Shown piece after piece: positions 44,601-62,621 of a stretch of DNA of 64,000 nucleotides (positions are counted from its first letter, which is position 1; the number at the start of each line of letters is the position of its first letter). Below the pieces are notes generated by a model. It saw only the letters and a list, made by a program, of their open reading frames with translations. It made no database searches and was not told where the DNA came from. Source of the stretch: Heptranchias perlo (lineage: Eukaryota); NCBI RefSeq assembly GCF_035084215.1, contig NC_090358.1, forward strand, positions 16,058,001 to 16,122,000, read 5' to 3'. The translations under genes and the position numbers were made by a program.

Positions 44601-47600
44601 ATGCTCGAAGAGGTAGGTTTTAAGAATATTTTTGGAAGATGGGAGAGCTTTAGAAATTGTGGAGCGATGAAAATCAGGGAGGAGCAAGAGGCCAGAATTG
44701 GGGGAGCGCAGAGATTTTGGAGGCTTGTAAGGCTGGAGGAGGTTACAGAGATAGGGAGGGGTGAGGCCATGGCGGTTCTTGAAAACAAGGATGAGAATTT
44801 TAAAATGGAGGCGATGACGGAACGGGAGCCAATGTAGGTCAGTGAGCACCGGGGTGACAGGTGAGTGAGACTTGGTGTAGAGTGCAGCTTGGGAGGCTGG
44901 TGAGCAGGGTATTGAAAAAGGCATGAATGAGGGTTCCAGCAGTAGTGAGGGTGAGGTGAGAGATGGAGATGGGAATATGCAAAAATGTTAGAAGAGTTCT
45001 CAAAATGTTAAACTCTGAAATATAGTGCTGCATTCTTATACACAACCATCCCATGTTTTGTGACAGGTGGAAATTTAGGTTTTGCAGAGAACCAGTGATC
45101 GGCAAAGAGCAGCAGGAAGAGATTTAGAGTGACTGACAGGAAGCGATGAGAAATGGGAGTGTTTAAGCCAACGGAAGGGAGCGGCAGAGCGAACAGGAGG
45201 ACATGCTGATAGAAGGACGTGTGCCTTTTATTCACTAGAGTCACTAACCAATACTGGTGGTTCTGTCCTGTTACTTTCAGGATGGGTAAATCCATTGCGT
45301 TTCCTATGATGTCCTGCATTTGTTTTTTCTTCCTGGAACAAGTAAGAAGTTTGACTGGGATGTTAAACGTGTTGAAAACACATTGGTTAACTTTAAATAT
45401 CATTTCTTCTTCGCTCCTTTCAAACCAGATATAAGCCAAAAAAAAATTCCTAATATAAAATATCAAAACCATCAAATATTATAAACTGCATCACTGAAAA
45501 AAATATTGATCGTTATTATACATTTATTTCAGCACTCAGAAGTTTAAAAAAATGCTCAGAGTGCACAGGAGCATACTCTAAATTCTCAAATTGTGTAACA
45601 GGAATGAAATATTTTAGTAAATGTTTACTGGCTTGTGCTTGTCTTATTAATTGTAATGTCCACAAAAGACTCTTGTTGGAGGGATTAACATTACAAGCTT
45701 TGTGACCATCCCACTTTATGACACATTCCATTTTTTAAAAATTCGTTCATGGGATGTGGGCGTTGCTGGCAAGGCCAGCATTTATTACCCATCCCTAATT
45801 GCCCTTGAGAAGGTGGTGGTGAGCCGCCTTCTTGAACCACTGCAATCCATGTGGTGAAGGTTCTCCCACAGTGCTGTTAGGAAGGGAGTTCCAGGATTTT
45901 GACCCAGCGACGATGAAGGAGCGGCGATATATTTCCAAGTCGGGATGGTGTGTGACTTGGAGGGGAACGTGCAGGTGGTGTTGTTCCTATGTACCTGCTG
46001 CTCTTGTCCTTTTGGGTGGTAGAAGACGCGGGTTTGGGAGGTGCTGTCGAAGAAGCCTTGGCGAGTTGCTGCAGTGCATCCTGTGGATGGTACACACTGC
46101 AGCCACTGTGCGCCGGTGATGAAGGGAGTGAATGTTTAGGGTGGTGGATGGGGTGCCAATCAAGCGAGCTGCTTTGTTCTGGATGGTGTCGAGCTTCTTG
46201 AGTGTTGTTGGAGCTGTACTCATCCAAACAGGTGGAGAGTATTCCATCACACTCCTGACTTGTGCCTTGTAGATGGTGGAAAGGCTTCTCTGCACTGCCT
46301 CCAGTGCTTGAATGTCTTCCTTGTGTCTCCGTGATCAGAACGTCACACTGTACCCACGGTGTGGTCTGACCAGAACACTGTACAGTTTCATCACAACTTC
46401 CTTTGGCTTGTATTCTACTCTTTTGATTATATAGTTCCATATTTAATTGGCTTTGTTGATTGCTGCTCTGGTTTTCAGTGATTATGTATCATCTCTGAAA
46501 CAAGCCACAGAAAATGGGAAGCCCTGGGGAGGGAAGCCCTGTCCTTATTTCCATAATGTTTACATCCTTAACGAAGCCTGTGCACCTACAGGCACCAGTG
46601 CAACTCAGATAGAAAATAACAGGCCGTGCACTGCCCACACACTTTTGGGGTAATGATGAGTCCCTCAAATTTTCAACCCAACACCCCCCCTTGCGTTCCT
46701 CCCTCTCCCTTACCCGTGTAGGGTTCAAAACCCCTTTAACAAAAGACATTCGAAGAAAAGGTTTAACTGTCCCCTTTTAAACAAAGGCATTTGAAAACTG
46801 CAAACACAGTAATGTGGTAAACTGTGTTTTTGCAAATCCCATTTTTCCCGCAATGACGCTGATGGCATTAGAGAAGTATGAGTTTCAGGATCGAAGATTT
46901 TAAACTGCGGATAGATATCTAGATTGTTCAATATATAAGCTAGATGGATCATAGTCATCTTAAAGTGATATCAGGCTTTCAAAACATATAGGCTTTTGGA
47001 AACACAAGTTTTTCAACACAGCAGGGGGTAAGGTAAGAAAGGGCATACATCAAAGGCTTCGGGTCAGGAAAGCAATGATAGGTATGAAAAAGCATGGGCC
47101 TCTCGTTTCTATCTGCTAATCTCTTCAAAAAACTGGGATTTGTAAAACATTAAATAGTATTGCATCCAGCATATAGTCAAATGGTATAAGGAATGGATTT
47201 GAAGCCATTGAAACAATCAAAATTGGAGAGATCAGGACCAATAAGAATATCTGGGCATAGAAATGTAAGAGGCTATCTCTACATGAAAGGCCATAAACAA
47301 AGACAGTAAAAGGGCCTTTTACAATCCATGGTTCGAGCACATGGTCTTTTCCACATCAAAAGGGTCTCCGGTCACATGATCAAAGCCTAAACTGTCAATC
47401 ATTGAAGTACGTTAATGATTGAGGCATAGCAACAGGGAACAATTGGACAAAAAGAATGACCCTCCCCAATCCCATTTCCTATTGGTAAAAAAAAACAATA
47501 TAAAAAGACTTTGAGAGAAGAACAGCCTCTTCACCACCCGGCAGTCACAAGGAACGCATACTGCAGTTGAATATCACACAAGAAGAAGAGAAGCTCGAGG

Positions 47601-50600
47601 ACTGAAGAGCTGATCAACCTTCAGGCCCAAAGAGCAAAAACTTTGGTTTAAAGGTTGTTTATGCATTAATGACTAGTCTGGTGTGTGTATGAATTGTTAA
47701 GTCATTACATAATAATGTTGTGAATTATTACGTGTATAACGGGATTTTATAGAGGAAAGTCATATGTATGGTTTGATATTGCTTCATGAATGCTCGTATG
47801 AATGATAACATCATTAAATAATTACTTTTGATTAACAAAACTACCATGAGTGAAGGTGACTTTCTTTGCTTGACTATTCTCCTGTTGTGGGATAACATGA
47901 CCTTTTGGAGGGAGAGCAATAAGGAATTCCCTACACCTAATGGAAAGTTTCCACTTTGGGTCCACTAGTAGCACCGGGATTTTGATGTGGTGTGATGTGC
48001 AGCACTGAACCATACAGGCTAGGAAGATAGTAGATATGGGCACTGGACTGTGCAGAGTTAACTCAACTCACCAGTGGTAGCACCATATTTGGTTCAGCAA
48101 TGCAAAGCTGGAATGGGAAAAAAAAATCAGCCCAGGACTTGCTCTCCTGAAAGCAACTCAGTAACACCTGGTGGAATATTTGTGTGTGCACATCACATAA
48201 GGACAGGATTGTACTTTTTTGATGGTCCCATGAAGGAACATCTGGTCAACACTCATTAGGTAAACTCCTATGTACAGCATGTCCATTTGTGTGCCAACAC
48301 CCATTGAACTGACCCCAGCATCAGTCACTGCCCTCAGGAGAACTGGGGAGAAAAAACACAGTAATATCGATCCTAGTTTTTAAATCATCTTTTTAAACAT
48401 TATGCCTTTTTTCAGCTCTTACCTCAAAAGCTATTTCTTATCTTACTTCAAAAGTTACCTCAAATATTAACTCGAACACTACCTCAGACTTAACCTTGAA
48501 CCTTCCTGTACCAGCTGCATTATTGCCACCTACAATCTCATTGTCAACATTATCTGCACTAGCTCCTCCTTACCAGAGCTACCTTACGTTACTGAATGTC
48601 ACCTTTACTGTTGCACTGTTTGTGATACTAACAAGAATGAAGGCGTGTACAAGCGAAACTTTCCTTTCCTTGGTATGTAGGGAAGAGATAAAAACTTTCT
48701 TTCCTACATGTATATTCACCCTGGAAAATTACTTTCCAACTTCTCCATATTGCTCTCCCTCCAAAAGATCATGTTATCCCACAACAGGAGAAGTGTTTGT
48801 TGAGTTTTAGTCTGCCCACATTATTTATGAGTGGAAATATTTCCAGTACAAACACACAATGACCTTAAAATTAGACTACCATATAGATGTACAAACACTT
48901 TAAAGCATTTGTCAAATTTTGTTTGATAACGCTCCTGTGAAGCATCTTGGGACTTTTAACTACGTTAAAGGCGCTATATAAATGCAAGTTGTTGTTGATA
49001 TTCCTCTTCCTGCTATTTTAACGGAGACATTAACCATTTATATCAAGTGGGTTAACCCTCTATGAAAATAACGAACAAGGAAACTTCACACAAACACGTC
49101 AGGCTTTTGTACACTAATATCACACAGAGAAACTTTAAGTCTGACAGAGTTACAGGAGGTGATCGGATTGTAGGATTACAAAGCTGACACGAAAAGGCAT
49201 TGTAGCTTATTCAGATTGGGGTGAGTGGAAAGGAGAAATAATAAGAATAATTTAGGATATAAATATTATGAAGTACGAGTGGATGTCTTGTGGCATTGCC
49301 CACTGAGAGTCAGGACAAAGCGAATTTCCCTCAGTGCATCAGTGATGCTGTAGGTGGAGGAATGGGAATCTACAGCTCCTGGAGTTTATGAACCGCCATC
49401 TAGTGGTAAGAGTGTGCATCTGCAGGAAAGATTGTGTAGTCGCAGAACGGTGATGCCCAAATAAGGAGTGCATGACATACATAGCAAATTTAATGTATTA
49501 TATTGAAAACAGACGAGTGAATTAAGATAAAATACGTTCCTGAAAGTGGAGAGATCATGGTGAAAAGTGCTGTTTAGCCTCTGATGGTTCACCTGCTTCA
49601 GTCAGTAAGCAGATGAGCTATAGACAACAGGCAAGTTCTAGATTCATCCCTGGTCTGTGTTAAGTTAACTGATCTCAATGAGTGCAGTGGCCAAGGGTCC
49701 TGCAGAGGGGGAACTCAGCAAGGCCCCTGCCCCCGATGGATATACGACAACCCTTGCTGCAAGTGCATGATGTAGCCAGCAGACTGGATTGTGATGTCCC
49801 ACAATTGAATAGCTTATCGAGGTTCATTGTTTAGGTTCACGCTGTTTAGTGCGAATTAGGTTGGACACACATTAAAACCACTGATGTTTGCATGCCTAGT
49901 TATTCATTGTTATCAGTCAAACACAAGTCCATTATTTAATGTGTGAGGACATAGCATGGGTGAAACTCATGTCTTCACTGATTCTAACCAATGCCTTAGA
50001 TTCATGTCAACTTTTTTTACTAAAATTAGTATCATTCACATTTAAAAGGAACTTTAGTTGCCGGGATGTTACAATGTTGTGATGCTATAGCTATCAATTG
50101 AGAAGTAATCTAAATAATGTAATCCGTGATCAACAGCCTGTTTCTGTTGGTTCACAACGCAACTTCCTAGTGGCAGGTGGGACTTGCCATCGACACACGT
50201 CTCCAAGTCTATCCTTCCTTCTCAACCCAAAGATGGTTGTTAGTTCATGGCACAGACACACTAATGTTTAATTAATGGCTGCCTGGCAGTGATTCCACTA
50301 TTGGCACTGAAATTAACACAAAGTTAATGAGTACAGTACATCTCCCTCAATCTCACTTTACATCCTGTTCATGTGGGAAGGTTTAGTTCACTTTACATAC
50401 ATATTGCAGTATGCCTTTAATTATTCAAATATCTGATATGGCAGAATCGACGATTAGGTGGAGTCACTGCACGGGTTAAAAAAAAATTCTAGAGAAGGCA
50501 AAATATCTGGTCTTGCAAGTTTTCTTTTCTCATGATATCATCCCTTGTTTTGGTTATGGTCAGATAGAAAGAAGAATGATTGTAAATGCTCACCACATTG

Positions 50601-53600
50601 AACCTTGCTTTTCTTGTGTGTGGCGTAGTGCATTCAGTGATATAAATCCACTGTACTGGCAAAACCAGATTAACGCCTTTGAACTGGTAGTTGTTTAGAA
50701 GGGATCTGATAGACGGGTGTCTGAGCTAGCTCCCATAGTTTACGCCATTGAATCCTCCTTATCTCGATAGCAGGCTCTTAGATCCATGAAAAATTTGGTC
50801 TATGGGTCTTCCGCCAGGATAAAGGAGACAGGTTTAGTAATGTAAACGGCGGAAACTGGTTCCTGGAAGTCCCAGAATCCGAACGTAAACAGCATTAGGC
50901 TACTTTAGACCAAATAAAACTGAACAGATTTCAAATAGTTTACAAACTGGGAGGAATGTACAGATTGGAAAGGACTGGGAAGCATTTGCACTGGTGCAAA
51001 TATCCCAAAGTGTATCCCTCTATAAATGAGCCCTGAGCTTGTGAAAGATGTGTGGACAGTGGTGTCTATGAACACACTTCTAATCCAGGCCTTTTCTGAG
51101 CAATTGCAGGATTTCAATATGCTGTTTTAATTCACTCCTGCACTTTAGAAGAGATGCTATAATTCTATTCCATGCTTATTTATGTGTTTGCTCCTATTTT
51201 AAAACTTTAATGTACAATCGACGAGTTTATTCATTAGGGCACATTCTTCTTCTGATGACTTCATTCATCTGCCAGAGGCCCTTCCTCGTGTGAAACAGAA
51301 GAATGTGTCAGAGATTGAGCTGGTCATGTCATACATGTAACCATGTCAATCATCAGATCGCTAAAGGAAAAGAAAGAACTTGAATTGATACGGCACCTTA
51401 TCATTCCCTCAGCACATCCCAAAGCACTTCACAAGCAGGGGATTTACTTTTGATGTGTCATCACTGTTGCTTTGCAGGCAAGTAAGGCAACCAATTTACA
51501 CACAGGTAGATTCTCTGAAAAACTTGCTTCTGTTGCTGTTCTTACCAATTAAATATCCTGTTTCAATTGTTCAAATGGATCTTCAAGGTCCTGTGGCACT
51601 GTTTGAAGAGCAGGAAGTTCCCCTGTTGTCCTGACCAACACCCAAACCAACATCACCAAGAGCAGGTTAACTGGACATTTATCTCATTGCTGTTTCTAGG
51701 ATCTTGTGTGCAAAATAACTTGACACATTTGCCTGTGAGATAACAATCGCTGCACTTTGGACTATTCTTGAAACAGGCGTAGCGTCCAGAGGTGTGAAGG
51801 GAGAAGTCTCGTGATCTCGTGACTCCCTTGCTTCTTCCAGGTACCCTGAAGACTTTGCAATCTGCAGAGTCCCACTACCAGGTGTCTTGAGGCACCCCTC
51901 TGTTAGGGTTCCCTATGGTGATAGCAAGAGGAAAGTGCCCGGGGCAGTGGGGGGGGGGTGGAAATCGGGAACATCCCCTCCTGCCTCATTAACATGCATA
52001 CATTGGGACCACCTCTACTGCAGGCTCAGGCCCAGGACACCCAGGAGCATCGTGAGGGCGGAGACCTGATGTAACCCATCTCCAGCCACATTTTCTTGTT
52101 GTTATATCAGGGATCTGAATGTTCCCCAGGCACAACAAAGAGGAAAATCAACCCCATTATCTTCAAACCTCTCAAGAACCGTAACAATCACCAACTCTTC
52201 TGATGACTTTCAAATAATGAGCTCACATAATGAATTTTCAACATACACCTGTAGCATCATAACTCTAACACCTCTAGTCTTCAAGGTGCAATTTTTTATA
52301 TCTGTACAATACAGTTATCACACTTAGCACTTCAATCTTACAAGTGAACTAAAGACGTTTACTGCATAGAAGGAGCCCACTCAGCCCATCTGTTTTAATT
52401 CATTGCCAGCGCAATCCAAAACCAGTCCCACTGCTCTACTCTCTCCTTAGACCTGTATCTTCCTCTGCTTCAAAATATTTATTTACTTTACCCTTAAAAC
52501 GTGCAATGGTCTCTATCTCGACTACTCCATGTATCAAAGGATTCCATGCTCCAACCACCCTCTCAGTAAAGAAATTTCTTCTAACCTGTTCCTTCTCTCA
52601 TCTGGTGACAGTTTTAAATTGATGATCTCTCCTCACTCACTCCATCCACAACCAGAGAGAATGGTCTTTCCTCTTCATAATTTTAAAAACCTCTATTAAA
52701 TCTCCTCTTAGTCTTCTCTGCTCCACTTATAACTTGTTTGATTTTGCAGAAACCCCTCCATGTTCTTAAAAGTCTCTTTTGGCATTTGATATCCTCCATT
52801 TAACTTCAGCCTTGTGATGTTTTTACACCACCCAAGTAAAAAATCTCCAAATTCTTCTCTTTGAGATCAATATTTTGATGGTCCTCTTTTTTGTGAAACC
52901 ACGGACTTCGTCACTGACAAGGGATTATACACATCAACAAATTATTTCTGGGTTAATCAAGATTAAGTTGTGTTACAATAAAAAACAAGTCCAACGAAAA
53001 GGATCCTGATTACAGTCTACAAAACATACTGATTTAACAGTTGTATTTTATTTTTTCGTGTACCTTAAGTACAGTTTGTTCCAAATAAACCAAAATGTCC
53101 TGTCACTGACAGGTTATTATGGCGACCACTTTATCACATAGAAGAGAGCAGGGGAACTCAGATATTGACTGAAACTGGATTTTGCCAGTATCCCTAAGCC
53201 CCTGTGCGTACTTGCTTGCAGTGCACACATGTATTGCAAATTGTGGGATGATCCTCCTGAGATTGGTGATTGATAGGTGTTTTAGTAAACTAGTCTCATT
53301 TGTTATTCCTCACCCGTGTGATGGATGTAATGACCTGATTTTTCAGTACAGCCTCTTCTCTGGAGAAGGCAATGTTGCCACTCCAGTTAGGAGTTTACTG
53401 TCTCAGCCAGCTCAATGTCACTCAGCAAACCCCTTCAAGTGTTGTAAATCTGTGCTTTCTCCACAAATAGGAGCCATCATTCTTTTTAATAGAGACCTTG
53501 ACAAAGTTCCAAGATTCACCTTGTCCGCAGACTTGAAACTAAGGCTTTTCTGTTTATTAGGTTTGGCTCCTTATTATAATTGTCATTGTTTTGCAAGATC

Positions 53601-56600
53601 CTGCTCAGTATTGATTTTGCAGTTTTCAGAGAAAGTGCATTTCCTTTAACAGTTTGAAAGTTCTTTTGTTTTTACATTTTTAATGTTTATCAGACAATAG
53701 AACGAAAAAAAGGTGCAGGGGGAAGAGTATTTATCAAGTAATTAAATAAAGAAAAAAGTGTTGAGTTAGGGCTACCAAGTCCAACCACCTCCCCTTGACA
53801 TTCAACGGCATTACCATCGCCAAATCCATCATCATCAACATCCTGGGTGTCACCATTGACCAGAAACTTAACTGGACCAGCCACATAAATACTGTGGCTA
53901 CAAGAGCGGGTCAGAGGCTGGGTATTCTGCGGTGCCTGCCACTGATAGAACCATCCCATCCGCAAGATGTAACACCTTAAGGAGAGGATGAAGGATAAAT
54001 GGGGAGGAAAGAAAGAACCCACTTTCCAAAAAAAAAAATCCGTGCGCTACCCGAGCTTCATAGTCGGTGTACGAAGACAAAGCAGCTCTATATTTAAACA
54101 ACCGCAGAACTAATGACTGCCAGTATAACAAGGGTGGTTCCTCGATCCCACACTTCCAGTGACTGCTAACATAACAATAGCATTGACACATTTAAGGGGA
54201 AACTTGATGCTTCCACGAGGGAGTAGTGAACAGAGGGAGATGGGGGCAGGGTGGAAGAGGTAACTCGAGTTTAAATGGTGTGCAAACACAACGCTGTTCT
54301 AATTTAACCCTTTCCACATTACTAACAGCTGCCATTTTTGGATTTTCAGCCAAACAACCATGAGTGTGAGGTTTATCTCTTGGATCTGGTGGTCACGGCT
54401 GGGAGGATTTTGTCAATGTTCGGTTTATTCAATGGAGAAAATCGGGGAAAGATTCTTTGTTCTCAGAGGGTTCAGTTTTAAGGACCAATTGCGCTGAAAT
54501 GGTGAGCCTACTGAACTCCTTCGATAGTCCACATTGCCGGAGAGAGCTGCCGACCTCACTGCATCCTACAAGGCCAACTGCTGAAGATCATTCCCCGTGC
54601 ATTTCCCTGGAGAACATGAAATGCAATAACTGCCAGGGGATCGGATATTCCAGTGAGCAGAAGCTCCTAAATGGCTACTGCTCACATTTAATGCTACACT
54701 GTTTTATCAACCCAATATCTGCAATGAAAGATGGCCAAAGGAGGGTGGGCAGATCTGCCTCCTTTGATAAAGATAGCTTAGATGTCCTCCTGCAAAAGGT
54801 GCAGCAAAGGAGCGTAGCCATATTTGGGGCTGAGAGACACCCTCCTATACGCTACAATGTTTAGCAAGCATGGCAGCAGGTGGCATAGATAAGCCTGTTC
54901 CCTCTCAGAATGACATCTGTCCACCCCAATCAGCCTGCCAGGTAGCAGCCCTGAGCAATCAACCAGTGTGTCGTCCAAAAAACTAGTGGCAGCAACTAGG
55001 GTCAACTCCTGACTCAGTATAAGGAGGGACAATGGGCACAGGAATCCCATGGCACCTTACTGAGGAGCAGCAGGCTGCCACCACAATTACACTTCCCACT
55101 GAGTAAGAAATCAGAAGGAGCACTAGAGGAGGAAGCAGAAGACATAACATGCACTATCACCAAGGGGAAGCTCTGGGGAAAGGAAAGCTGATTGCATAAA
55201 CACACAACAGTAACAGGGAAATAAATCTGTTGCAATTTATTTCAATGTAGTTGTGAGAGTTTTTCAGAAAGGGCATATGAATTTAGGGGGGAAAAAATAA
55301 CGGGTATGTAGGATAGTCGAAGTGGATTTGATTGTAATAGATTGAATGGTGATTATAGGTCCACCATCTTGTGCTCAATATGATCAGACTGTTCACACAT
55401 TGGCCTGAGTCACAGAAGTCTAGAAACAGATCACCTTCCCACCTTATTGATCAGTTGGAGAATGACATATTTCAGAACTCAGCAAAGATTTTGTTTGTCA
55501 TAAATTAATGAAACTTTAAAAAAGTAAACAAAGAAATTTGTCCCTTAATATTCCTTAAAAACTCAATAATGGCTGATATCCTCAGAATCTATTCCAGGGT
55601 AGAAATGTTTGTACAAAACGTTTGAGGACTTTCTCTGCGGATAGTGACATGGTTAGCAGTTGGGTGTCAGAGCTCACTGTGTATGAATCAAATGATTACA
55701 CAAGGACTGTAATGTGGAGTTTGGAACAGCGCAGCAATGCTGGATGATGTTCAACTTTATGTCATCATGTTTGCTAAAGTCTATCTCACTGCACCTGGCT
55801 AGATAGGATTACTGCAAAGTACAAAAGGCAAGCCATTAACAAACCCATTCATGAGAGCACCTATTCTATTTCAAACATGTCCAAGAAAAATTTTCTTCTA
55901 CATGTAAATATTGGCTTGTAGCTCACTGCCCTGCTCATTCTACAGTACCTGTCTGTCTTTAACTCCATCACTTCGTGACTCAATAAATCATTTCAGCACC
56001 TGAAGCCATAGACTGATATATTTCAATATGCTTCAATTATTTGTGCCAGGAGAGTCCACTTTTTTTATTTTTTTAAATTGTTTAATTTGATGACTAGAAT
56101 ACATTTTGTTTTAAAAGATGGGACTCCTTCCCTCTAAATGTATTTATTCACTTATGCAGCATACATATGTACATATTTCACTTATGCCTGAGAGGATAGT
56201 TAACCTGCCACCAGCTCTTCTGAAACCAGCATGTGTATCAGAGTGGACTTGGACAATGCTTTGATTTTTCCCACCCTTCAGCAAGTATTTGTCCTCCACG
56301 CAGTGCATCCCCACAGTTGCATGGCTCAAAGCAAGAGCTCAGGATGTAGAGAACTGCACCATAAACCCGGATCCAATTGCTCTACTTGTGACACTTCTAG
56401 AGCTCCAGTGAACGTCAACACCAGCAGTAGTCTCCCAATTGCACCTCCTTTCACATGTACAAGGTGGTGTACATTAACCGTGTGTTCAAAAATACTGGAT
56501 TAACATATCCAGAACAATTTTCTGGATGAACATATCCAGAGGAATTTTCCAGATTTCCCCTTAATCGGCCTGGGATCTGTTTTTTTGCCTCTCTCAGGAG

Positions 56601-59600
56601 ATTACATGGCTCCAGGTGGGTGGGGAGTGTATGTATTGTAATCTACAAGGCATCACAACTGTATGGGACAGGCTGGATGGACCAGCAGATCTTTTCCTGT
56701 CCGTCATTTTTCACATGTTCGTATAATTGCCAGTAAGTGATGTTACCTAGGTCTCCAATCACTCAATTCACTGATCGTTTAACTGAGTGTCCTTCACAGA
56801 CCAGGAATAATAAGGTGTCCAGGGGATTGTCTATATTTGCTTCTTGTAGAAAAACCACTATTATTTTCCTTATATTTCTTTCAGTTTATGGTTTCATTGA
56901 AAATAGTGCACTGAGGAAATCGTCTCACCTCGTGTTCTCTAGTCTTAAATAGCCATTACCATTGATCTGTGATTCAGTGATGTCTCTTTCCTCCACTATA
57001 CCATTAAATATTAGCCATTTGACAGCCAACATAAGGATTGATCAACATTAAAAGCGTAATGCTGCCTTAATCCCTTTTTTGACTATGTTTATTAAATATA
57101 TGTGAATATTAAGCATAAACACTCCCGTCAGTTCCAAAATTCAATGTAGCCCTTCTAAAAATATATATTTTAAATATAAATATACTTGCTGCAGACTTGC
57201 GGATTGAGATGATCTGTGCAAACTGAGATATTTATTGAAAAATATCTAACTCGGGTAGCTATAGGAGAGGGCTAGGCACAGTCGGTGGGTGTGCCGCAGG
57301 TTTAGAACATTAACTCTTCAAGAGTCTTGTAAAAATTCAAGAATATTGCATCAGCTGAATTATTTAGTTGAAAAATGTACACACAGGCCAATCATGGGCC
57401 CAGTGTGACTACATACCATCAGAGTCCACAGTATGACGTTGGTTAAAAAAACACACAGAAAGAAAGATAAGAACGATGTAGTCTGACAACAGGCGCTGGC
57501 TAAACATTGCAATCTAATTTAAAGTAGTAGTCCCTTATTGTGACTGAGTGAAATGTAAGAAAATATGGCTGAGAAAAGAACCACGGTGTAACAGACCCAT
57601 TCCTTCACCTACCATGTACAAATCACTCTACTATTCGTTGAGGAGATTAAACGGATTGGGCGAAGAGAGGTATAGGTGAGAAAAAGCTCTTTGAATGAGA
57701 GGTACAAATGAAGAAAAGCTCTAATGCAGCTCTCTGCCCACCCAAATGTAAAGCAAACCCTGAATACCTATCTAACCCTATACCCTACATTGTACATCCT
57801 TGACCAGTTGCTTTCCTTGGGAGGAGACTTCCATGGCTGTACCAGCTCAGGAAACATCACTTTTCACACCGCATTCTGTAATCTCCTTCTGTATTTATCC
57901 TTAGTATCCTATTCCTGACATAGTCATCCAGATCTTTTCAAAGCTGTGAAGGTGTTATGAACACAGCACTCGCTGCTTTGCTCGATAGTACATTCTACAG
58001 ATCCGGTACCCTGGAGGAGGGGGATCCATCTCATTGTACCCTGATTAAGGCTTGTTAATTTCTTTCCCTCATGACCGCTGATTCTCTGCGCACAACCTAA
58101 GCTGGATCACTAATTGGCATCAGGAGCACAGCTACACCTCAGAAGGTTTGGAACTTTCCCAATCAACATTCTCGGACATAGAAGAGAAAAACAAGACGGA
58201 GCTTTGGAATGTGTGAAGAAATTTGAGATTTGAAAAAAACAAAGATAGATTGAAAGACAAAATCAATTTGCATGATGCAGTGAGATTGGATAAAAAAAAA
58301 CAGGAAAGTAAGTGAAACTGGCCGATGGGGTTAGAGAGGCTGAAACAGATAGAGATGGAGACCGATTAAAAGAGACATATAGATATAGAGAGGGAGGATA
58401 GAAGAGCTTAGAGACAATGTTGCCTGGCAATGCCTAATTTCAGAGTGTGAGAGTAGAGATACTGCACAGAAATTCGGACTATCTGAGCAGTGACTGGGAT
58501 ATACTTTCTCAGCTGTTCCAGGAGTTTGGATCCATTACTGTTAGAATTCTTAAAGATCTGGATCATGTCTCCTGATTTTTATAAAGAAAACAAATTCAGT
58601 TCTATGAGACTCTTCATAACTTGGGAGTTCTAAGATCCAGACTCATTCTTCTTAATTTTCTCTGAACATGCACCGATGCATTAATGGCCTTTCGAAAGTA
58701 GAGTGCCCAAAACTACACACGACATTCTGAATGTGGCTTTTTCTGAGCTCGATGCAAGGTTAGGATAATTTGTTCGACTATAGTCAAACTTGTGGGGACA
58801 AAAAGGGTGTCAGACGAGATTCCTGTGGAATTCCACGAGTTGCTGGCCCTTAGCCAAAGTTTTTCTGCTTATTAGCAGGCACTTCATTCTAGTTCAGTGC
58901 ACTTCATATATCACTCCTGTAGCTTGTGAGCTGTAAATCTGGTGAGTGTATACCGCCACAGTAGAGGAGCCAATATTTTAGAGGAGAATGAGCTCTTCTG
59001 ATGATGGGAGCGTACATTTTGTCCATCATTTTAGTTAGATACATCAGGCATACAGATGGTGTACTTCCACACAAATGGTACACTTCTCTCGTACAAACTA
59101 GATATGGTTCGTACGTAACACATATACGAACAACAACAACTCGCATTTATATAGCATCTTTAATGTAGTAAAAACGTCCCAAGGCGCAGGCACGATGGGT
59201 CGAATGGCCTCCTTCTGTGCTGTATGATTCTATGGCGCTTCACTGGAGCGTTAACAAACAAAATTTGACACCGAGCCACATAAGGAGATATTAGTCCGGT
59301 GACCAAAAGCTTGGTCAAAAAGGTAGGTTTTAAGGACCATCTTAAAGGAGGGGGGAAGAGGTCGAGAGGCAGAGAGGTTTAGGGAGGGAATTCCAGAGCT
59401 TAGGACCTAGGCAGCTGAAGGCGCGGTAGAGCGATTAAAATCAGGGATGCGCAAGAAGCAAGAATTGGAGGAGCGTAGAAACCTCGGAGGGTTGTAGGGC
59501 TGGATGAGGTTACAGAGATAGGGAAGGGCGAGGCCATGGAGGGATTGAAAACAAGGATGAGAATTTTAAAACTGAGGTAGTCAGCGAGCACAAGGGTGAT

Positions 59601-62600
59601 GGGTGAACGGGACTTGGTGCAAGTTAGGATATGGGCAGCAGAGTTTTGGATGAGCTCAAGTTTATGGAGGGTGGAAGATGGGAGGCCGGCCAGGAGAGCA
59701 TTGGAATAGTCAAGTCTAGAGATTGCAAAGGCATGGATGAAGGTTTCAGCAGCAGATGAGCTGAGGCAGGGGCGGAGGTGGGCGATGTTATGGAGGTGGA
59801 AGTAGGCGGTCTTGGTGATGGAGTGAATGGGTGGTCAGGGTCAAATAAGACACCAAGGTTGCAAACGGTCTGGTTCAGCCTCAGCCAGTGGCCAGGGAGA
59901 GGGATGGAGTCGGTGGCAAGGGAACGGAGTTGGTGGCGGGGACCGAAGACATGGGCTTCGGTCTTCCCAATATTTAGTATCCTAAGTGGCAAACAATCGT
60001 CACCCACTGCTCATTAGAGTTAAACTTATCACATGAGCGGTGGGTGATGTTTGTTTACCACTTAGAGCAAATTCCAGGCCAATGATTCAGTACTTGTCCT
60101 GCAAGGTAGTGTGTGAAGAATATACAGCACAACTCTGGTACTGATATACATCTTGTAAAACCACATTCTTTAAGAAAAAAATTCACAGGTATCACAAAGC
60201 AGAGTTCAGATGTCATATGCCTCTGAGGCTACATGGTTACAATTGCTTTTACTATTTGAATAGATAAAATCAGTGACATAGTGATTGCACAAACTATTGC
60301 TGAAGCTCAATCGCAGCATCGGCCCTCCCCCTTCCCTGTCCCGGCCAGATCTTCAGGTTTGAGCCTCATATCAGGCAGGTTAATTGAAGTTAAGATTGTA
60401 AACAATTTTACAACACCAAGTTATAGTCCAGCAATTTTATTTTAAATTCACAAGTTTTCGGAGGCTTCCTCCTTCGTCAGGTGAACGATATTTTCACATC
60501 GTTCACCTGACGAAGGAGGAAGCCTCCGAAAGCTTGTGAATTTAAAATAAAATTGCTGGACTATAACTTGGTGTTGTAAAATTGTTTACAGAAGTTAAGA
60601 TTATGAAGTAACGACTGCCTCAGTCCAGTAACATCTTATGGGAAACTATTTATAGTAAATGTTATTATTATTACTACCACAGCATTGAACTTCTAATCAA
60701 ACATCTACACACAGCTCAAACAAAGAGGACAGGAGGAACCTCTTGTACCTTTTGCTCTCAGAAGAGGTTTAACACCCAAAAGTTCTCACTGAATTCCTAC
60801 TGTAGGCCAATGGGTCAGAGATCACTGAAGACAACACCACGATAATCTTTTTAAAACTCGTATTAACCCATTCTCTGATCTGATGAGAGCTACTGCTAGT
60901 ATTTTTGTTATGATGTGGAATTGCCGGTGATGGACTGGTGATGACTCCATCAGCCTCCGAAAGCTTGTGATTTTCAAATAAAACTGTTGGACTATAACCT
61001 GGTGTTGTAAGATTCCTTAGTATTTTTGTTAGTGAAGGTACTTTGCATGGAGATGAAAGAGTAACCTTTAATGCTGCATTAATTTACATAACAACTAGAG
61101 TGCATTTTTGTTCAGTGATGTGCGCCAGTGAAGGAGTTTCAGGGACACTGACCTCAGTCATCCTAATTAAGTTTTCCTCACATACGGACAAAAGGTAAAA
61201 TAACCTATCCCTAAAAATAATGGGTGTTTCTCACATTATTCATTTGTAAATTATTTAATTGATTTCAGCTGAGATAGATTGCAATGTGTCTTCACGTCAT
61301 TGCTTTGTCCCAGAGTTTCTGTTAATCGGTAAACTCTGGAGGTTAGCAGCCTGAGCACACAAACTGCACACTCCTGAAATCTCGGCTATAAAATCTTATC
61401 TTTCCAACAGATGGTAGGAGGAACACTGGTTTTACAAAACGAGGCTTCCACAGCTCTCACCTAACCATAGAGAAAAAGTGATTTGTAAAAGACTTCCATC
61501 ACGTGGAAAATCAACTATTTTTAAGGTGTGTTCTATCTAAAGATATTAAAGTTTGCATGTTGTTAAATCTGAGACAATTAATCAGCAGCAAATTACAAAG
61601 AGACACTAAAAATCAGCTAGTCACAGGCATTGCCTGTGGGGCCGTGTCACTTTAAACCAGGATGTAATATATGTCTACAAAGAAGTTGTGAATCGATTAC
61701 TCTTAACCATAAAAATGCTATTTTGTGGGGCCATCAATAATGGTACCTTAGCTAAAATGATGAATATAAAACCAAACCTTTCACTTAAATCTAGATTCAT
61801 GGCACAAAAATGACCTGTATTTAGGGTTGCCAACTCTGGTATAACCTGGATGTAGCCCAGGTTTCATCACATGATCTCCTGCCTCCAACTGCCCCACCAC
61901 CACGCACCCGCCATTGGTCACCTGACACGTCTATCCTGCGCCAATTGGAAAGCGAACAGACTCTTTGTTTCCTGATTGGATGTATCTTGACTGTCAGTCA
62001 AACAGCTTTTTTTCTCCTTCTCCAATATTTTTATAACTAATAAACAAAAGTGTTCAAAGAAATTTTTCAAAAACACAATTCTATTAGTGCCCCTATGATT
62101 TTTCTCCCAGGTTTCTTGCAGCAGTGTCTAGGAGATTACTCTTTAATTCCTGGAAACTCCAGGACAATCCTGGGGGGTTGGCAACCCTACCTGTACCATT
62201 AACAAGCCAACACTGGCATTAACACTTGTGGAGGTAACAGAAGCAGTGACATTGCTTAACTTTACTGACCATTTCGGTTTTTCCTTTACTTTTGGTTTCA
62301 TCTCGTGCCGAGGTGGAGTTTCCTTCAGCGTGGAGAGTCAGCCGTACCCTTCGGATGTTACCCTAAGCAATGGAACAACCAGGTGTTTATCTGATTGCAC
62401 TATTTAAGCAGAAGCAAAATAAAAGAACATTTCTGAACACTCAGTTTAAACTGAAATGTTCAATATGCCAAGCAGTTTAGATGAAGTATAAAATACCATC
62501 ACAGATTTAGTCACATTAAATGTTTACATAAGAGCAATAAAATAATAAAATGACTTACCCTCCTTACAGGCTCTGGTGACTTTGTGATTGTGCATGTTGT

Positions 62601-62621
62601 CGCTGTTTTAAATTGTAGCAT
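17576..62621 (-). CDS. MYZAP: MYZAP (myozap, GCOM1 upstream gene), 13 coding exons, 1380 nt, 459 aa coiled-coil protein
   Basis: Exon translations match recalled human MYZAP segments (QLKEEMNYI, SQEAN, EEANKK, SLRERIRHLDxMVHCQQxKVKQMxEE, ISFLExE, TPYxRxxEL). All 12 introns are GT-AG and in phase. Confidence 0.95.
17731..18127. mobile_element. GC-rich MITE-like element with imperfect TIRs
   Basis: GTCCTGATTTTGAC ... GTTAAAATCAGACC, same TIR style as 36086-36803. Confidence 0.55.
18486..19059 (+). mobile_element. CR1 3' fragment nested in an older repeat
   Basis: Degenerate LYKSLVRP / RGNLI / TKGHRFK-type sequence and a GATTCTATGA tail. Confidence 0.85.
19455..19690 (-). mobile_element. Short 3' fragment of the same LINE family as 45740-46290
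   Basis: Near-identical to 45740-45990; SFIVTGSKSWNSLP. Confidence 0.85.
19830..19930 (-). CDS. MYZAP: MYZAP exon 12, NKELQDKLNYMMSLDQQRTVETREQVVSYDSPI(R)
   Basis: gcctag|AAT ... AG|GTAACA (phase 2); 101 nt. Confidence 0.92.
20920..21570 (+). mobile_element. L2 3' fragment interrupted by a ~190-bp insert and a (TCC)n-type microsatellite
   Basis: LQLIQNFAA motif, LWNPLP, tail gatgctatataaaagggcaagttgttgtt. Confidence 0.7.
22549..22632 (-). CDS. MYZAP: MYZAP exon 11, IEILKSKIQQKDVMIEDLLERISFLEAE
   Basis: cttacag|ATT ... GAG|GTAAGG; 84 nt. Confidence 0.93.
23660..23765 (-). CDS. MYZAP: MYZAP exon 10, SQKVEEKAASLRERIRHLDNMVHCQQRKVKQMIEE
   Basis: gtgtcag|G TCC ... GAG|GTGAGA; 106 nt. Confidence 0.94.
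23985..24085. repeat. Degenerate ~18-20-bp tandem repeat (gagagXXXtattcYct)
   Basis: About five imperfect units. Confidence 0.55.
24510..26025 (-). mobile_element. 5'-truncated CR1-clade LINE (RT fragments)
   Basis: ORFs 25218..25865 (QHGF, GVPQGSVLGP, FADD) and 24595..24966 (RRMRGDLIE, RTRGH); CR1 3' UTR near 24510. Confidence 0.95.
26988..27073 (-). CDS. MYZAP: MYZAP exon 9, ERHLLQQRLQEQEKKLSQRDETDSRNSE(W)
   Basis: ttgcag|GAG; the only phase-2 GT at the exon end before the in-frame stop is the weak TG|GTGCTG; 86 nt. Confidence 0.82.
28280..28625 (+). mobile_element. SINE sharing the gggatggXcaataaatgc 3' tail of the LINE at 19455/45740
   Basis: B-box remnant tcaaatcccacc, a non-coding core, and the LINE-type tail. 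Confidence 0.65.
29548..29676 (-). CDS. MYZAP: MYZAP exon 8, ARINQALKELEEANKKALAAEQKIAERDQRIQELDQLIARMVE
   Basis: poly-T tract then aatgaag|GCT ... GAG|GTATTA; 129 nt. Confidence 0.92.
30377..30690. repeat. 46-bp tandem repeat AGTGAATGCTGCAGTGTTAAGATTCACTATCAGCAYCATTATTAGT, about 5 good copies plus degenerate ones
   Basis: Periodic recurrence at about 30464, 30509, 30555, 30601 and 30647. Confidence 0.9.
31190..31323. mobile_element. Palindromic MITE, related family
   Basis: GGGTAATTTTAACTTTTTGTGATGGTGTAAAA ... TTTTACACCATCAACAAAAGTTAAAATTATCCC. Confidence 0.75.
31695..31820 (-). CDS. MYZAP: MYZAP exon 7, IEASQEANTSAMQDMTRKLYNQYEAKLKEAKQLHQAEKEAIQ
   Basis: tttatag|ATC ... CAG|GTATGT; 126 nt. 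Confidence 0.93.
35618..35770 (-). CDS. MYZAP: MYZAP exon 6, KSLLDSTAEANKRREEMEVLRNSYHQSLEQMKEKNQQIHDAQTENQILKLK
   Basis: ttgtcag|AAA ... AAG|GTAAAC; 153 nt. Confidence 0.92.
36086..36803. mobile_element. PIF/Harbinger-type non-autonomous element
   Basis: TIR GGGCACAATTTTAA / TTAAAATCATGCCC; 3-bp TSD TGA on both sides. Confidence 0.7.
37239..37410. mobile_element. Palindromic MITE (GGGGTAGATTTT termini)
   Basis: Long imperfect inverted arms, ACT on both flanks; homologous to 42090-42261. Confidence 0.8.
37686..37799 (-). CDS. MYZAP: MYZAP exon 5, VSEARQESLQREVKSNSSTLEQYSQMNSSLTTLTIDLQ
   Basis: cttcag|GTC ... CAG|GTAGAA; 114 nt. Confidence 0.92.
38615..40050 (-). mobile_element. Degenerate L2 LINE fragments
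   Basis: WFRSYLS, GAPQSSILGP, DAQLY and FLQLNIGRTEAI in ORF 39281..39739. Confidence 0.8.
40500..40778 (-). mobile_element. CR1 3' end fragment
   Basis: ORF with FTQRVVESWNSLPQKAV; taggaacataggaac tail. Confidence 0.85.
42090..42261. mobile_element. Palindromic MITE, same family as 37239-37410
   Basis: Shares gttttacatctctcctgatttt and gtcaaaatctacccc. Confidence 0.8.
42388..42480 (-). CDS. MYZAP: MYZAP exon 4, MRHSLEKVRQQMFGEFSGMKERMKQLTNEMR
   Basis: ttcag|ATG ... AGG|GTAAGT; 93 nt. Confidence 0.92.
44055..44201 (-). CDS. MYZAP: MYZAP exon 3, HLSNGMGSEASPQGTIYGVVQRADDNKAEVVVYEWSVNQLKEEMNYITE
   Basis: tttgcag|CAT ... GAG|GTGAGA; 147 nt. Confidence 0.93.
44500..44960 (-). mobile_element. 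L2 LINE 3' fragment
   Basis: HSPVTPVLTDLHWLP...FKILILVFK...LKTYLF. Confidence 0.85.
45740..46290 (-). mobile_element. 3' fragment of a second CR1-like LINE family
   Basis: ORF IYKAQVRSVMEYSP...LDTIQNKAARLIG...SLHHRR; 3' end gggatgggtaataaatgctggcc. Confidence 0.85.
52365..52730 (-). mobile_element. Degenerate CR1 3' fragment
   Basis: Minus strand reads aggagatttaatagaggtttttaaaattatg and ttctttactgagagggtggttggagcatggaa. Confidence 0.6.
53780..53932 (+). mobile_element. Internal RT fragment of a CR1-like LINE
   Basis: TFNGITI...LGVTIDQKLNWTSHINTVATRAGQRLGILR. Confidence 0.75.
58500..58760 (-). mobile_element. Highly degenerate CR1 RT C-terminal fragment
   Basis: Minus strand resembles the HLEYCVQFW..ERVQ..YEERL coding segment. 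Confidence 0.45.
59130..59975 (-). mobile_element. L2-clade LINE 3' fragment
   Basis: LNIGKTEA, NLGVLFD and FKILILV motifs; (GTT)n tail at 59130-59140. Confidence 0.85.
60397..60590. mobile_element. Palindromic Penelope-like-derived insertion, 93-bp arms, 8-nt loop, 11-bp TSD GAAGTTAAGAT
   Basis: Arms 60397-60489 and 60498-60590 are reverse complements with one mismatch; TSD at 60386-60396 and 60591-60601. Confidence 0.9.
60502..60540 (+). ncRNA. Minimal type-I hammerhead ribozyme motif
   Basis: TTCAC-CTGACGA-A-GGAGG/AAG/CCTCC-GAAA-GC-TT-GTGAA: stem I TTCAC/GTGAA, conserved CUGANGA and GAAA boxes, stem II, and a vestigial palindromic stem III (AAGCTT). Confidence 0.75.
60911..61017 (+). mobile_element. 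Truncated relative of the 60397 element with 14-bp TSD TAGTATTTTTGTTA
   Basis: Shares gcctccgaaagcttgtga...ggactataacXtggtgttgtaa; TSD at 60897-60910 and 61018-61031. Confidence 0.85.
61822..62189. mobile_element. Non-autonomous hAT-type DNA transposon (MITE)
   Basis: TIR TAGGGTTGCCAAC / GTTGGCAACCCTA; 8-bp flanks CCTGTATT / CCTGTACC (6/8 match). Confidence 0.8.
62270..62362 (-). CDS. MYZAP: MYZAP exon 2, GNIRRVRLTLHAEGNSTSARDETKSKGKTEM
   Basis: cttag|GGT ... ATG|GTCAGT; resembles human ANVCRLRLTV. Confidence 0.85.
62559..62621 (-). CDS. MYZAP: MYZAP exon 1 coding part, MLQFKTATTCTITKSPEPVRR
   Basis: GGGACAATGC Kozak context, in-frame upstream TAA at 62640-62642, donor AGG|GTAAGT. Confidence 0.8.

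Follow-up and report, generated by a model that had tools for sequence, protein, structure and literature searches.

The window analyzed here, 64,000 nucleotides of the Heptranchias perlo contig NC_090358.1, contains within the MYZAP gene an almost perfect 194-base hairpin, which raises the question of what kind of element left it there and how its two arms came to face each other. An earlier note had described 93-bp arms with a single mismatch, an 8-nt loop and an exact 11-bp target site duplication (TSD), and had proposed a young, non-autonomous, ribozyme-bearing fold-back retro-element. The repeat analysis returned all of these structural details: two 93-nt arms (60397–60489 and 60498–60590) differ at one position (T at 60455 versus G at 60532), are separated by an 8-nt spacer (60490–60497) and are flanked by the direct repeat GAAGTTAAGAT. 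The predicted hairpin fold reached −164 kcal/mol (z = −27), and none of 200 shuffled sequences was equally stable. While the length of the loop was correct, it is not a separate sequence. In the parent element described below, a TATA box precedes the hammerhead. Counted from this box, the right arm starts at +29 and the left arm at +37, and the initial 8 nt of the right copy, the longer of the two with 101 nt, therefore make up the "loop". The coordinates of all features are collected in Table 1.

Table 1. Features of the hairpin insertion and its host context, in positions of the window.
Feature	Position	Strand	Remarks
Left TSD	60386..60396		11 bp, exact; 12 bp with the T common to the arm start; family mode 12 bp (37/74)
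Inverted PLE leader copy	60397..60489	-	TATA+37 to pLTR end; no tail; one base off the family norm, in stem III
Minimal hammerhead, MYZAP pre-mRNA strand	60447..60485	-	15.2-16.2 pair broken
Forward PLE leader copy	60490..60590	+	101 nt, inferred start (A, TATA+29) to pLTR end; no tail
Minimal type-I hammerhead	60502..60540	+	predicted cut between 60535 and 60536
Right TSD	60591..60601		direct repeat
MYZAP intron 2, host context	45333..62272	-	bounded by the flanking exon positions

A minimal hammerhead had been claimed for each strand, and a type-I hammerhead descriptor indeed matched both arms (+60502 and −60485) and nothing else on either strand of the window. The right-arm motif is composed of a 5-bp stem I, the core, an extra A after position 9, a 5-bp stem II and a loopless palindromic stem III. 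With its core, helices I and II, the extra nucleotide after position 9 and the G10.1-C11.1 pair, it matches the published features of the minimal type-I class, and the proposed assignment to this class with a palindromic stem III holds for the right arm. The single arm mismatch falls into this palindrome, as had been stated: the 15.2-16.2 pair for the helix III of a dimer is present in the right arm and absent from the left arm, which is the one read on the MYZAP strand, while other members of the family nearly always have the palindrome intact. A covariance-model match, in contrast, was not obtained, as the 27 Rfam matches at E ≤ 10 included no hammerhead family and consisted of generic hairpin models below their cut-offs. 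Among subfamilies, stem II varies as G-C, A-U or G-U, and stem I varies by wobble changes. In the 9-row alignment, 98.8% of the hammerhead stem cells pair, compared to 20–51% when the stems are slid; since 71 of 500 shuffles also reached 98.8%, the covariation is weak. In the predicted best fold of the leader (60490–60590), the first bases pair around the cut site and replace the catalytic stem I, which is possibly an off state.

Both arms are almost certainly pLTR ends of an intact Penelope-like element (PLE). A copy with the arrangement pLTR-ORF-pLTR (L063) carries an AUG immediately after the tail and encodes a 902-aa protein, and the identity of the two arms to its pLTR end amounts to 97.8% and 96.7%. 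Its single ORF contains the YIDD motif of a reverse transcriptase (RT) and matches RVT_1 with an E of 2e-10 (41 bits, with the cut-off at 29.6). A C-terminal GIY-YIG-like motif (VVY...YIG) was recognized by eye and is preceded by a C-X4-C-X2-C linker, in agreement with the CX2-5CxxC linker between RT and endonuclease (EN) that the available text of PMC8557442 gives as the Neptune/Nematis criterion. The expected parent with a PLE RT and a GIY-YIG domain was thus found with regards to the RT; for the GIY-YIG domain, the motif and the PF01541 matches in many relatives agree with the expectation, while Pfam returned no EN match for the protein itself. The proteins closest to it come from sharks, and no PDB entry matched it with an E below 0.86. 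A protein search of the genome yielded 13,569 candidates, and for the 150 that were scored, a count by hand gave 18 in which the 918-codon frame is open throughout. Longer copies of the hammerhead sequence lead into the ORF, and the parent family has a tandem period of 3,081 bp, which at the family level corresponds to the tandem or partial-tandem pLTRs of PLEs. Two end points occur among the copies, the pLTR end and a site about 38 nt beyond it, at the AUG; the segment between them is the PLE "tail". In sum, the claimed Penelope origin, the inverted architecture of head-to-head pLTR ends within a TSD and the youth of the insertion, the arms being 97–98% identical to an intact parent, were all substantiated. 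Two PLE copies (L002 and L003) are nested in other LINE-type RT elements. At a distance of 300 bp from the hairpin, the window holds a further, older insertion of this family (60897–61031, 14-bp TSD), which contains an inverted tail piece (60907–60945, 87% identical to the parent) as well as a forward pLTR end (60952–61014, 90%) that is cut inside stem II; its arm could pair with the left arm of the hairpin (75 nt, 84%).

With a probability of roughly 0.65, we consider the hairpin to be the likely dead-end product of twin priming on a short 5' leader RNA. The pLTR promoter would make an RNA that starts at the A at TATA+29 and contains the hammerhead, the pLTR end, the tail and the AUG within its first ~140 nt. 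The enzyme, probably a dimer, would nick the two strands of the target at positions about 12 bp from each other, and each 3'-OH would prime a cDNA at an internal start site of the leader. As a rule, one of these sites would be the pLTR end and the other the tail end; in the MYZAP-intron copy, both cDNAs would have been primed at the pLTR end. The RT would then pass through the uncleaved hammerhead and run off the 5' end of the RNA, after which the two cDNA ends would be trimmed (with 8 nt lost on the left), joined and filled in. The hairpin itself contains neither the promoter (TATA box) nor the ORF. In the twin priming of L1, both target nicks prime cDNA, which results in an inversion inside a TSD, and such inversions join different parts of one RNA. 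Priming at two nicks and the TSD are the same here, but both arms copy the same leader.

Priming from both ends is supported by 74 distinct short back-to-back insertions, taken from motif-picked loci located mostly at the start of one contig, a sample in which very short arms are under-represented. A tail was present at one end only in 68 of them, at neither end in five and at both ends in one, and the TSD had a length of 12 bp in 37 cases and 13 bp in 16 cases, while none was found in seven. The MYZAP-intron copy is one of the five tailless insertions and, as a member of this minority class, counts against a strict rule of one start site for each cDNA. According to the available text of Frangieh et al. 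(2024, PMC11167929), cleavage and extension by the protein of the Poseidon element PAc of Anolis take place on both strands, RT begins at two internal sites on either side of the tail, the template is uncleaved RNA, and the protein is a predicted dimer, much as proposed here. However, PAc belongs to a different clade, the Cys linker being present in the shark element, and the PAc ORF begins inside the hammerhead, whereas the AUG of the shark element follows the tail.

The lengths of the two arms are coupled. Among 36 pairs, 25 joined leader to leader, five joined leader to a shorter arm and six were read-through pairs, while not a single leader arm was combined with a read-through arm (Fisher p = 5e-7). 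When partners were allowed to run off the locus, two of 92 were read-through, starting from 123 leader-only arms with both arms counted. In four of the six pairs of the long-copy set, a read-through arm is combined with a very short arm. The coupling would also result from fold-back, in which one cDNA from one nick reaches the 5' end of the RNA and folds back to copy itself, or self-primes on antisense RNA, before the distal end is resolved by the endonuclease, with the tail retained at one side. Self-priming on antisense RNA has been proposed for Adineta PLEs (PMC3846280) and resolution of the tail by the EN appears in PMC8557442, as far as the accessible parts of both papers go. Fold-back explains the one-sided tail along with the coupled lengths, and 15 of the 36 pairs are indeed identical. 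However, its arms have to be identical at birth, and yet they differ at subfamily-diagnostic sites in eight of the 36 pairs (table rows that represent 35 sites, as L261 appears twice), in six of these by the same C/G transversion, which counts against it. The diagnostic columns hold nine of 39 arm differences, compared to a chance share of 2.6% (p = 6e-7). Judged from these sequences, the differences point to two RNA templates and against a simple fold-back, and some of them could have arisen by gene conversion. Moreover, the two points at which PAc initiates RT coincide with the termini of the inverted arms. Overall, we regard fold-back as unlikely. As most pairs (28 of 36) share their subfamily alleles, while random pairs drawn from the pool are different in 80% of cases, the indication of two templates is limited to a minority of pairs; this sharing and the identical pairs, which one template or fold-back would also give, count against twin priming. 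Long back-to-back pairs on G000:C1 (e.g., 93887799/93890007 and 27698597/27700763) often have open frames of equal length on both strands, which suggests near-symmetric arms even at the kilobase scale.

The right arm starts on the A of an Inr-like motif. In a sample of 140 arms, 43 extend across the TATA box; of the 97 that do not, 30 have their end at TATA+28 to +31, a position that holds in subfamilies with a TATA-to-core spacing of 39–40 nt or of 46 nt. Genome-wide, 601 of 2,913 subfamily copies (20.6%) lose the match exactly before the A at TATA+29, and 1,747 run at least 5 nt past it. From the TATA/Inr spacing, we infer that this A is the transcription start. A G precedes it in 50 of the first 100 copies listed (hand count), though not in the MYZAP-intron copy, which fits copying of the cap; microhomology joins yield the same letter. 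Twin priming could also have taken place with stops near −100 that mark a stall of the RT at the base of hammerhead stem I, or a microhomology hotspot, and not the 5' end of the RNA. The stop is located 8–17 nt upstream of the hammerhead core, the first bases of the leader can pair with sequence just after the core, and several joins have overlaps of 1–2 nt, all in favor of this explanation. However, the peak tracks the TATA box across subfamilies of differing TATA-to-core spacing, arms without an inverted partner start at the same A, and the copies that continue past the stop are as expected of read-through RNA. A stall or hotspot is therefore distinctly improbable.

Ribozyme cleavage was rejected as the usual source of the 5' ends, since the match was lost at the predicted cut in 166 of 44,320 copies genome-wide (0.37%), and at the neighbouring bases in 221 of 44,541 and 131 of 44,154. 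With stops at the cut being so rare, the template was nearly always uncleaved, as seen for PAc in vitro, and as the stops pile up at TATA+29 and not at the cut, the arms are likely run-off copies of the uncleaved leader RNA. An arm started at the predicted cut in 30 loci, comprising four point substitutions, eight arms without a partner and 18 with one. In 12 of these 18, the start of the partner coincided with the cut or followed it (no more than 3 nt away in seven), compared to one of 18 for the inferred-start arms (p = 3e-4), which served as reference in place of a distant control position. The coupled starts are a weak hint of rare paired cleavage in vivo, as from a dimeric hammerhead; general length symmetry or microhomology in stem I are alternative explanations.

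Finally, the hairpin could be a ribozyme-bearing, non-autonomous retro-element that is transcribed and reinserted as a palindromic unit, as the earlier note had proposed. The genome-wide count suggested there gave 21,529 occurrences of a 33-nt hammerhead pattern in the 3.25-Gb genome (control: 0) and 44,541 of a 31-nt pattern downstream of the hammerhead, and hence at least 44,541 arm copies. The exact 34-nt hairpin junction is found at four sites, the MYZAP intron included, and its presence at three further sites is what a self-spreading unit would produce. However, the outer ends of these three differ (by eye, two have their own TSDs and a right tail, and one has a rearranged left side), and the junctions vary widely between sister hairpins. 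Four junctions with differing ends against such a number of arm copies indicate that the hairpin does not spread as a unit, the hairpin has no TATA box of its own, and a recurrent junction is to be expected from a fixed stop that is used by 601 copies; this part of the earlier proposal is thus very unlikely. Two related classes were rejected as well: a SINE- or MITE-like unit would occur in many copies with a common junction and both ends in common, and a non-LTR retrozyme would consist of head-to-tail tandem units in place of one inverted pair. In six loci (L073, L267, L268, L269, L276 and L281), the junctions contain short repeats templated by arm sequence nearby, a pattern that resembles end-joining with templated insertions. 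An assembly artefact by chimeric fold-back can practically be dismissed: no contig piece listed spans the hairpin centre and the DNA runs may stem from the source sample of the assembly, but the exact TSD of the family's modal length, the single arm mismatch, the unequal arm starts and both host junctions in DNA-run contigs, at a single-copy depth about that of the flanks, speak against it. Among the 15 joints listed of 99 in these contigs, none was an empty-site joint.

A doubtful but possible extension of twin priming is that the palindromic stem III pairs two leader RNAs in one dimeric RNP, in which each protomer, priming one nick at its own start site, would reach the end of its template at the capped 5' terminus. 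Such a run-off would give cDNAs similar to strong-stop products. The pairing of two RNAs in this way would explain the mixed-subfamily arms, the one-sided tail, the coupled lengths and, in the rare cleaved cases, the start of both arms at the cut.

The hairpin is a known kind of PLE footprint. Published units of EN+ PLEs combine an inverted 5'-truncated pLTR, a one-sided tail of 30–40 bp and a TSD (Craig et al. 2021, PMC8557442; Pen2a_Av, Arkhipova et al. 2013, PMC3846280; both from the available text). In contrast to these, both copies are cut here to the ~100-nt leader, without ORF and tail, and the accessible portions of both papers neither tie the stops to a start site nor report two templates. 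Dual minimal hammerheads on opposite strands and the features of the minimal motif are described in the accessible portion of PMC4209133, where sharks are not named; the right-arm motif matches these features, with a helix II of 5 bp compared to 7–8 bp in Schistosoma. Non-LTR retrozymes, as far as the available preprint text goes (bioRxiv 10.64898/2026.07.22.740005), are likewise non-coding, derived from PLE pLTRs and equipped with a type-I hammerhead, and were found in one sampled chondrichthyan. However, they form head-to-tail tandem arrays and are thought to replicate via circles, whereas the present insertion is one head-to-head pair with a TSD. In our search of the openly accessible literature, neither run-off from a start site nor priming on two templates was found described for PLEs.

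With regards to the host gene, MYZAP exon 1 was located at 62621–62559, exon 2 at 62362–62273 and the following exon at 45332–45249, all on the minus strand, which places the hairpin in intron 2 as previously claimed. The exons are 95–100% identical to a protein recorded from Heptranchias perlo; an exon search of the ESM Atlas gave no useful match. Downstream on the same strand, a GCOM2/POLR2M domain (PF15328, E 1e-27) was found at 3849–4586, and database records contain MYZAP and GCOM2/POLR2M fused into one protein of ~980 aa. In the MYZAP pre-mRNA, the insertion would form a 93-bp duplex with a predicted energy of about −161 kcal/mol, compared to about −11 kcal/mol for the hammerhead fold. 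Such a duplex could, as suggested in the earlier note, be a substrate for ADAR or Dicer. Given this difference, the duplex would be predicted to outcompete the hammerhead fold and to keep the hairpin silent as a ribozyme; in addition, it is the mutated hammerhead that is found on the MYZAP strand. None of the RNA runs was listed as containing the hairpin site. Contigs of one sample, guessed to be RNA, match the family sequence and are uninformative on strand, start, editing and the MYZAP-intron locus. Close to the insertion, an unrelated hairpin (59982–60065) has 33-nt arms with 88% complementarity and an 18-nt spacer; its depth in DNA contigs is a few times single-copy, and it has weak matches to miRNA models below the cut-off. 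The end of another high-copy repeat occupies 59900–59987, with a summed contig depth near 1e5.

As many such hairpins exist in the genome, nothing singles out the MYZAP-intron copy as functional, and the locus is probably inert, one of very many. While it is ordinary as a locus, the family is useful as a mechanistic dataset. It bears on the way in which inverted pLTRs and tails arise in PLEs and on the role of the hammerhead, topics of the available text of PMC8557442 and PMC11167929, and the genome offers large countable tests in the form of start-site stops, one-sided tails and two-template hairpins. If two leader RNAs were indeed paired in one dimeric RNP, tens of thousands of shark hairpins would record two-RNA integration and dimeric ribozyme cleavage in vivo in PLEs, and the palindrome of the ribozyme would have a role beyond cleavage.
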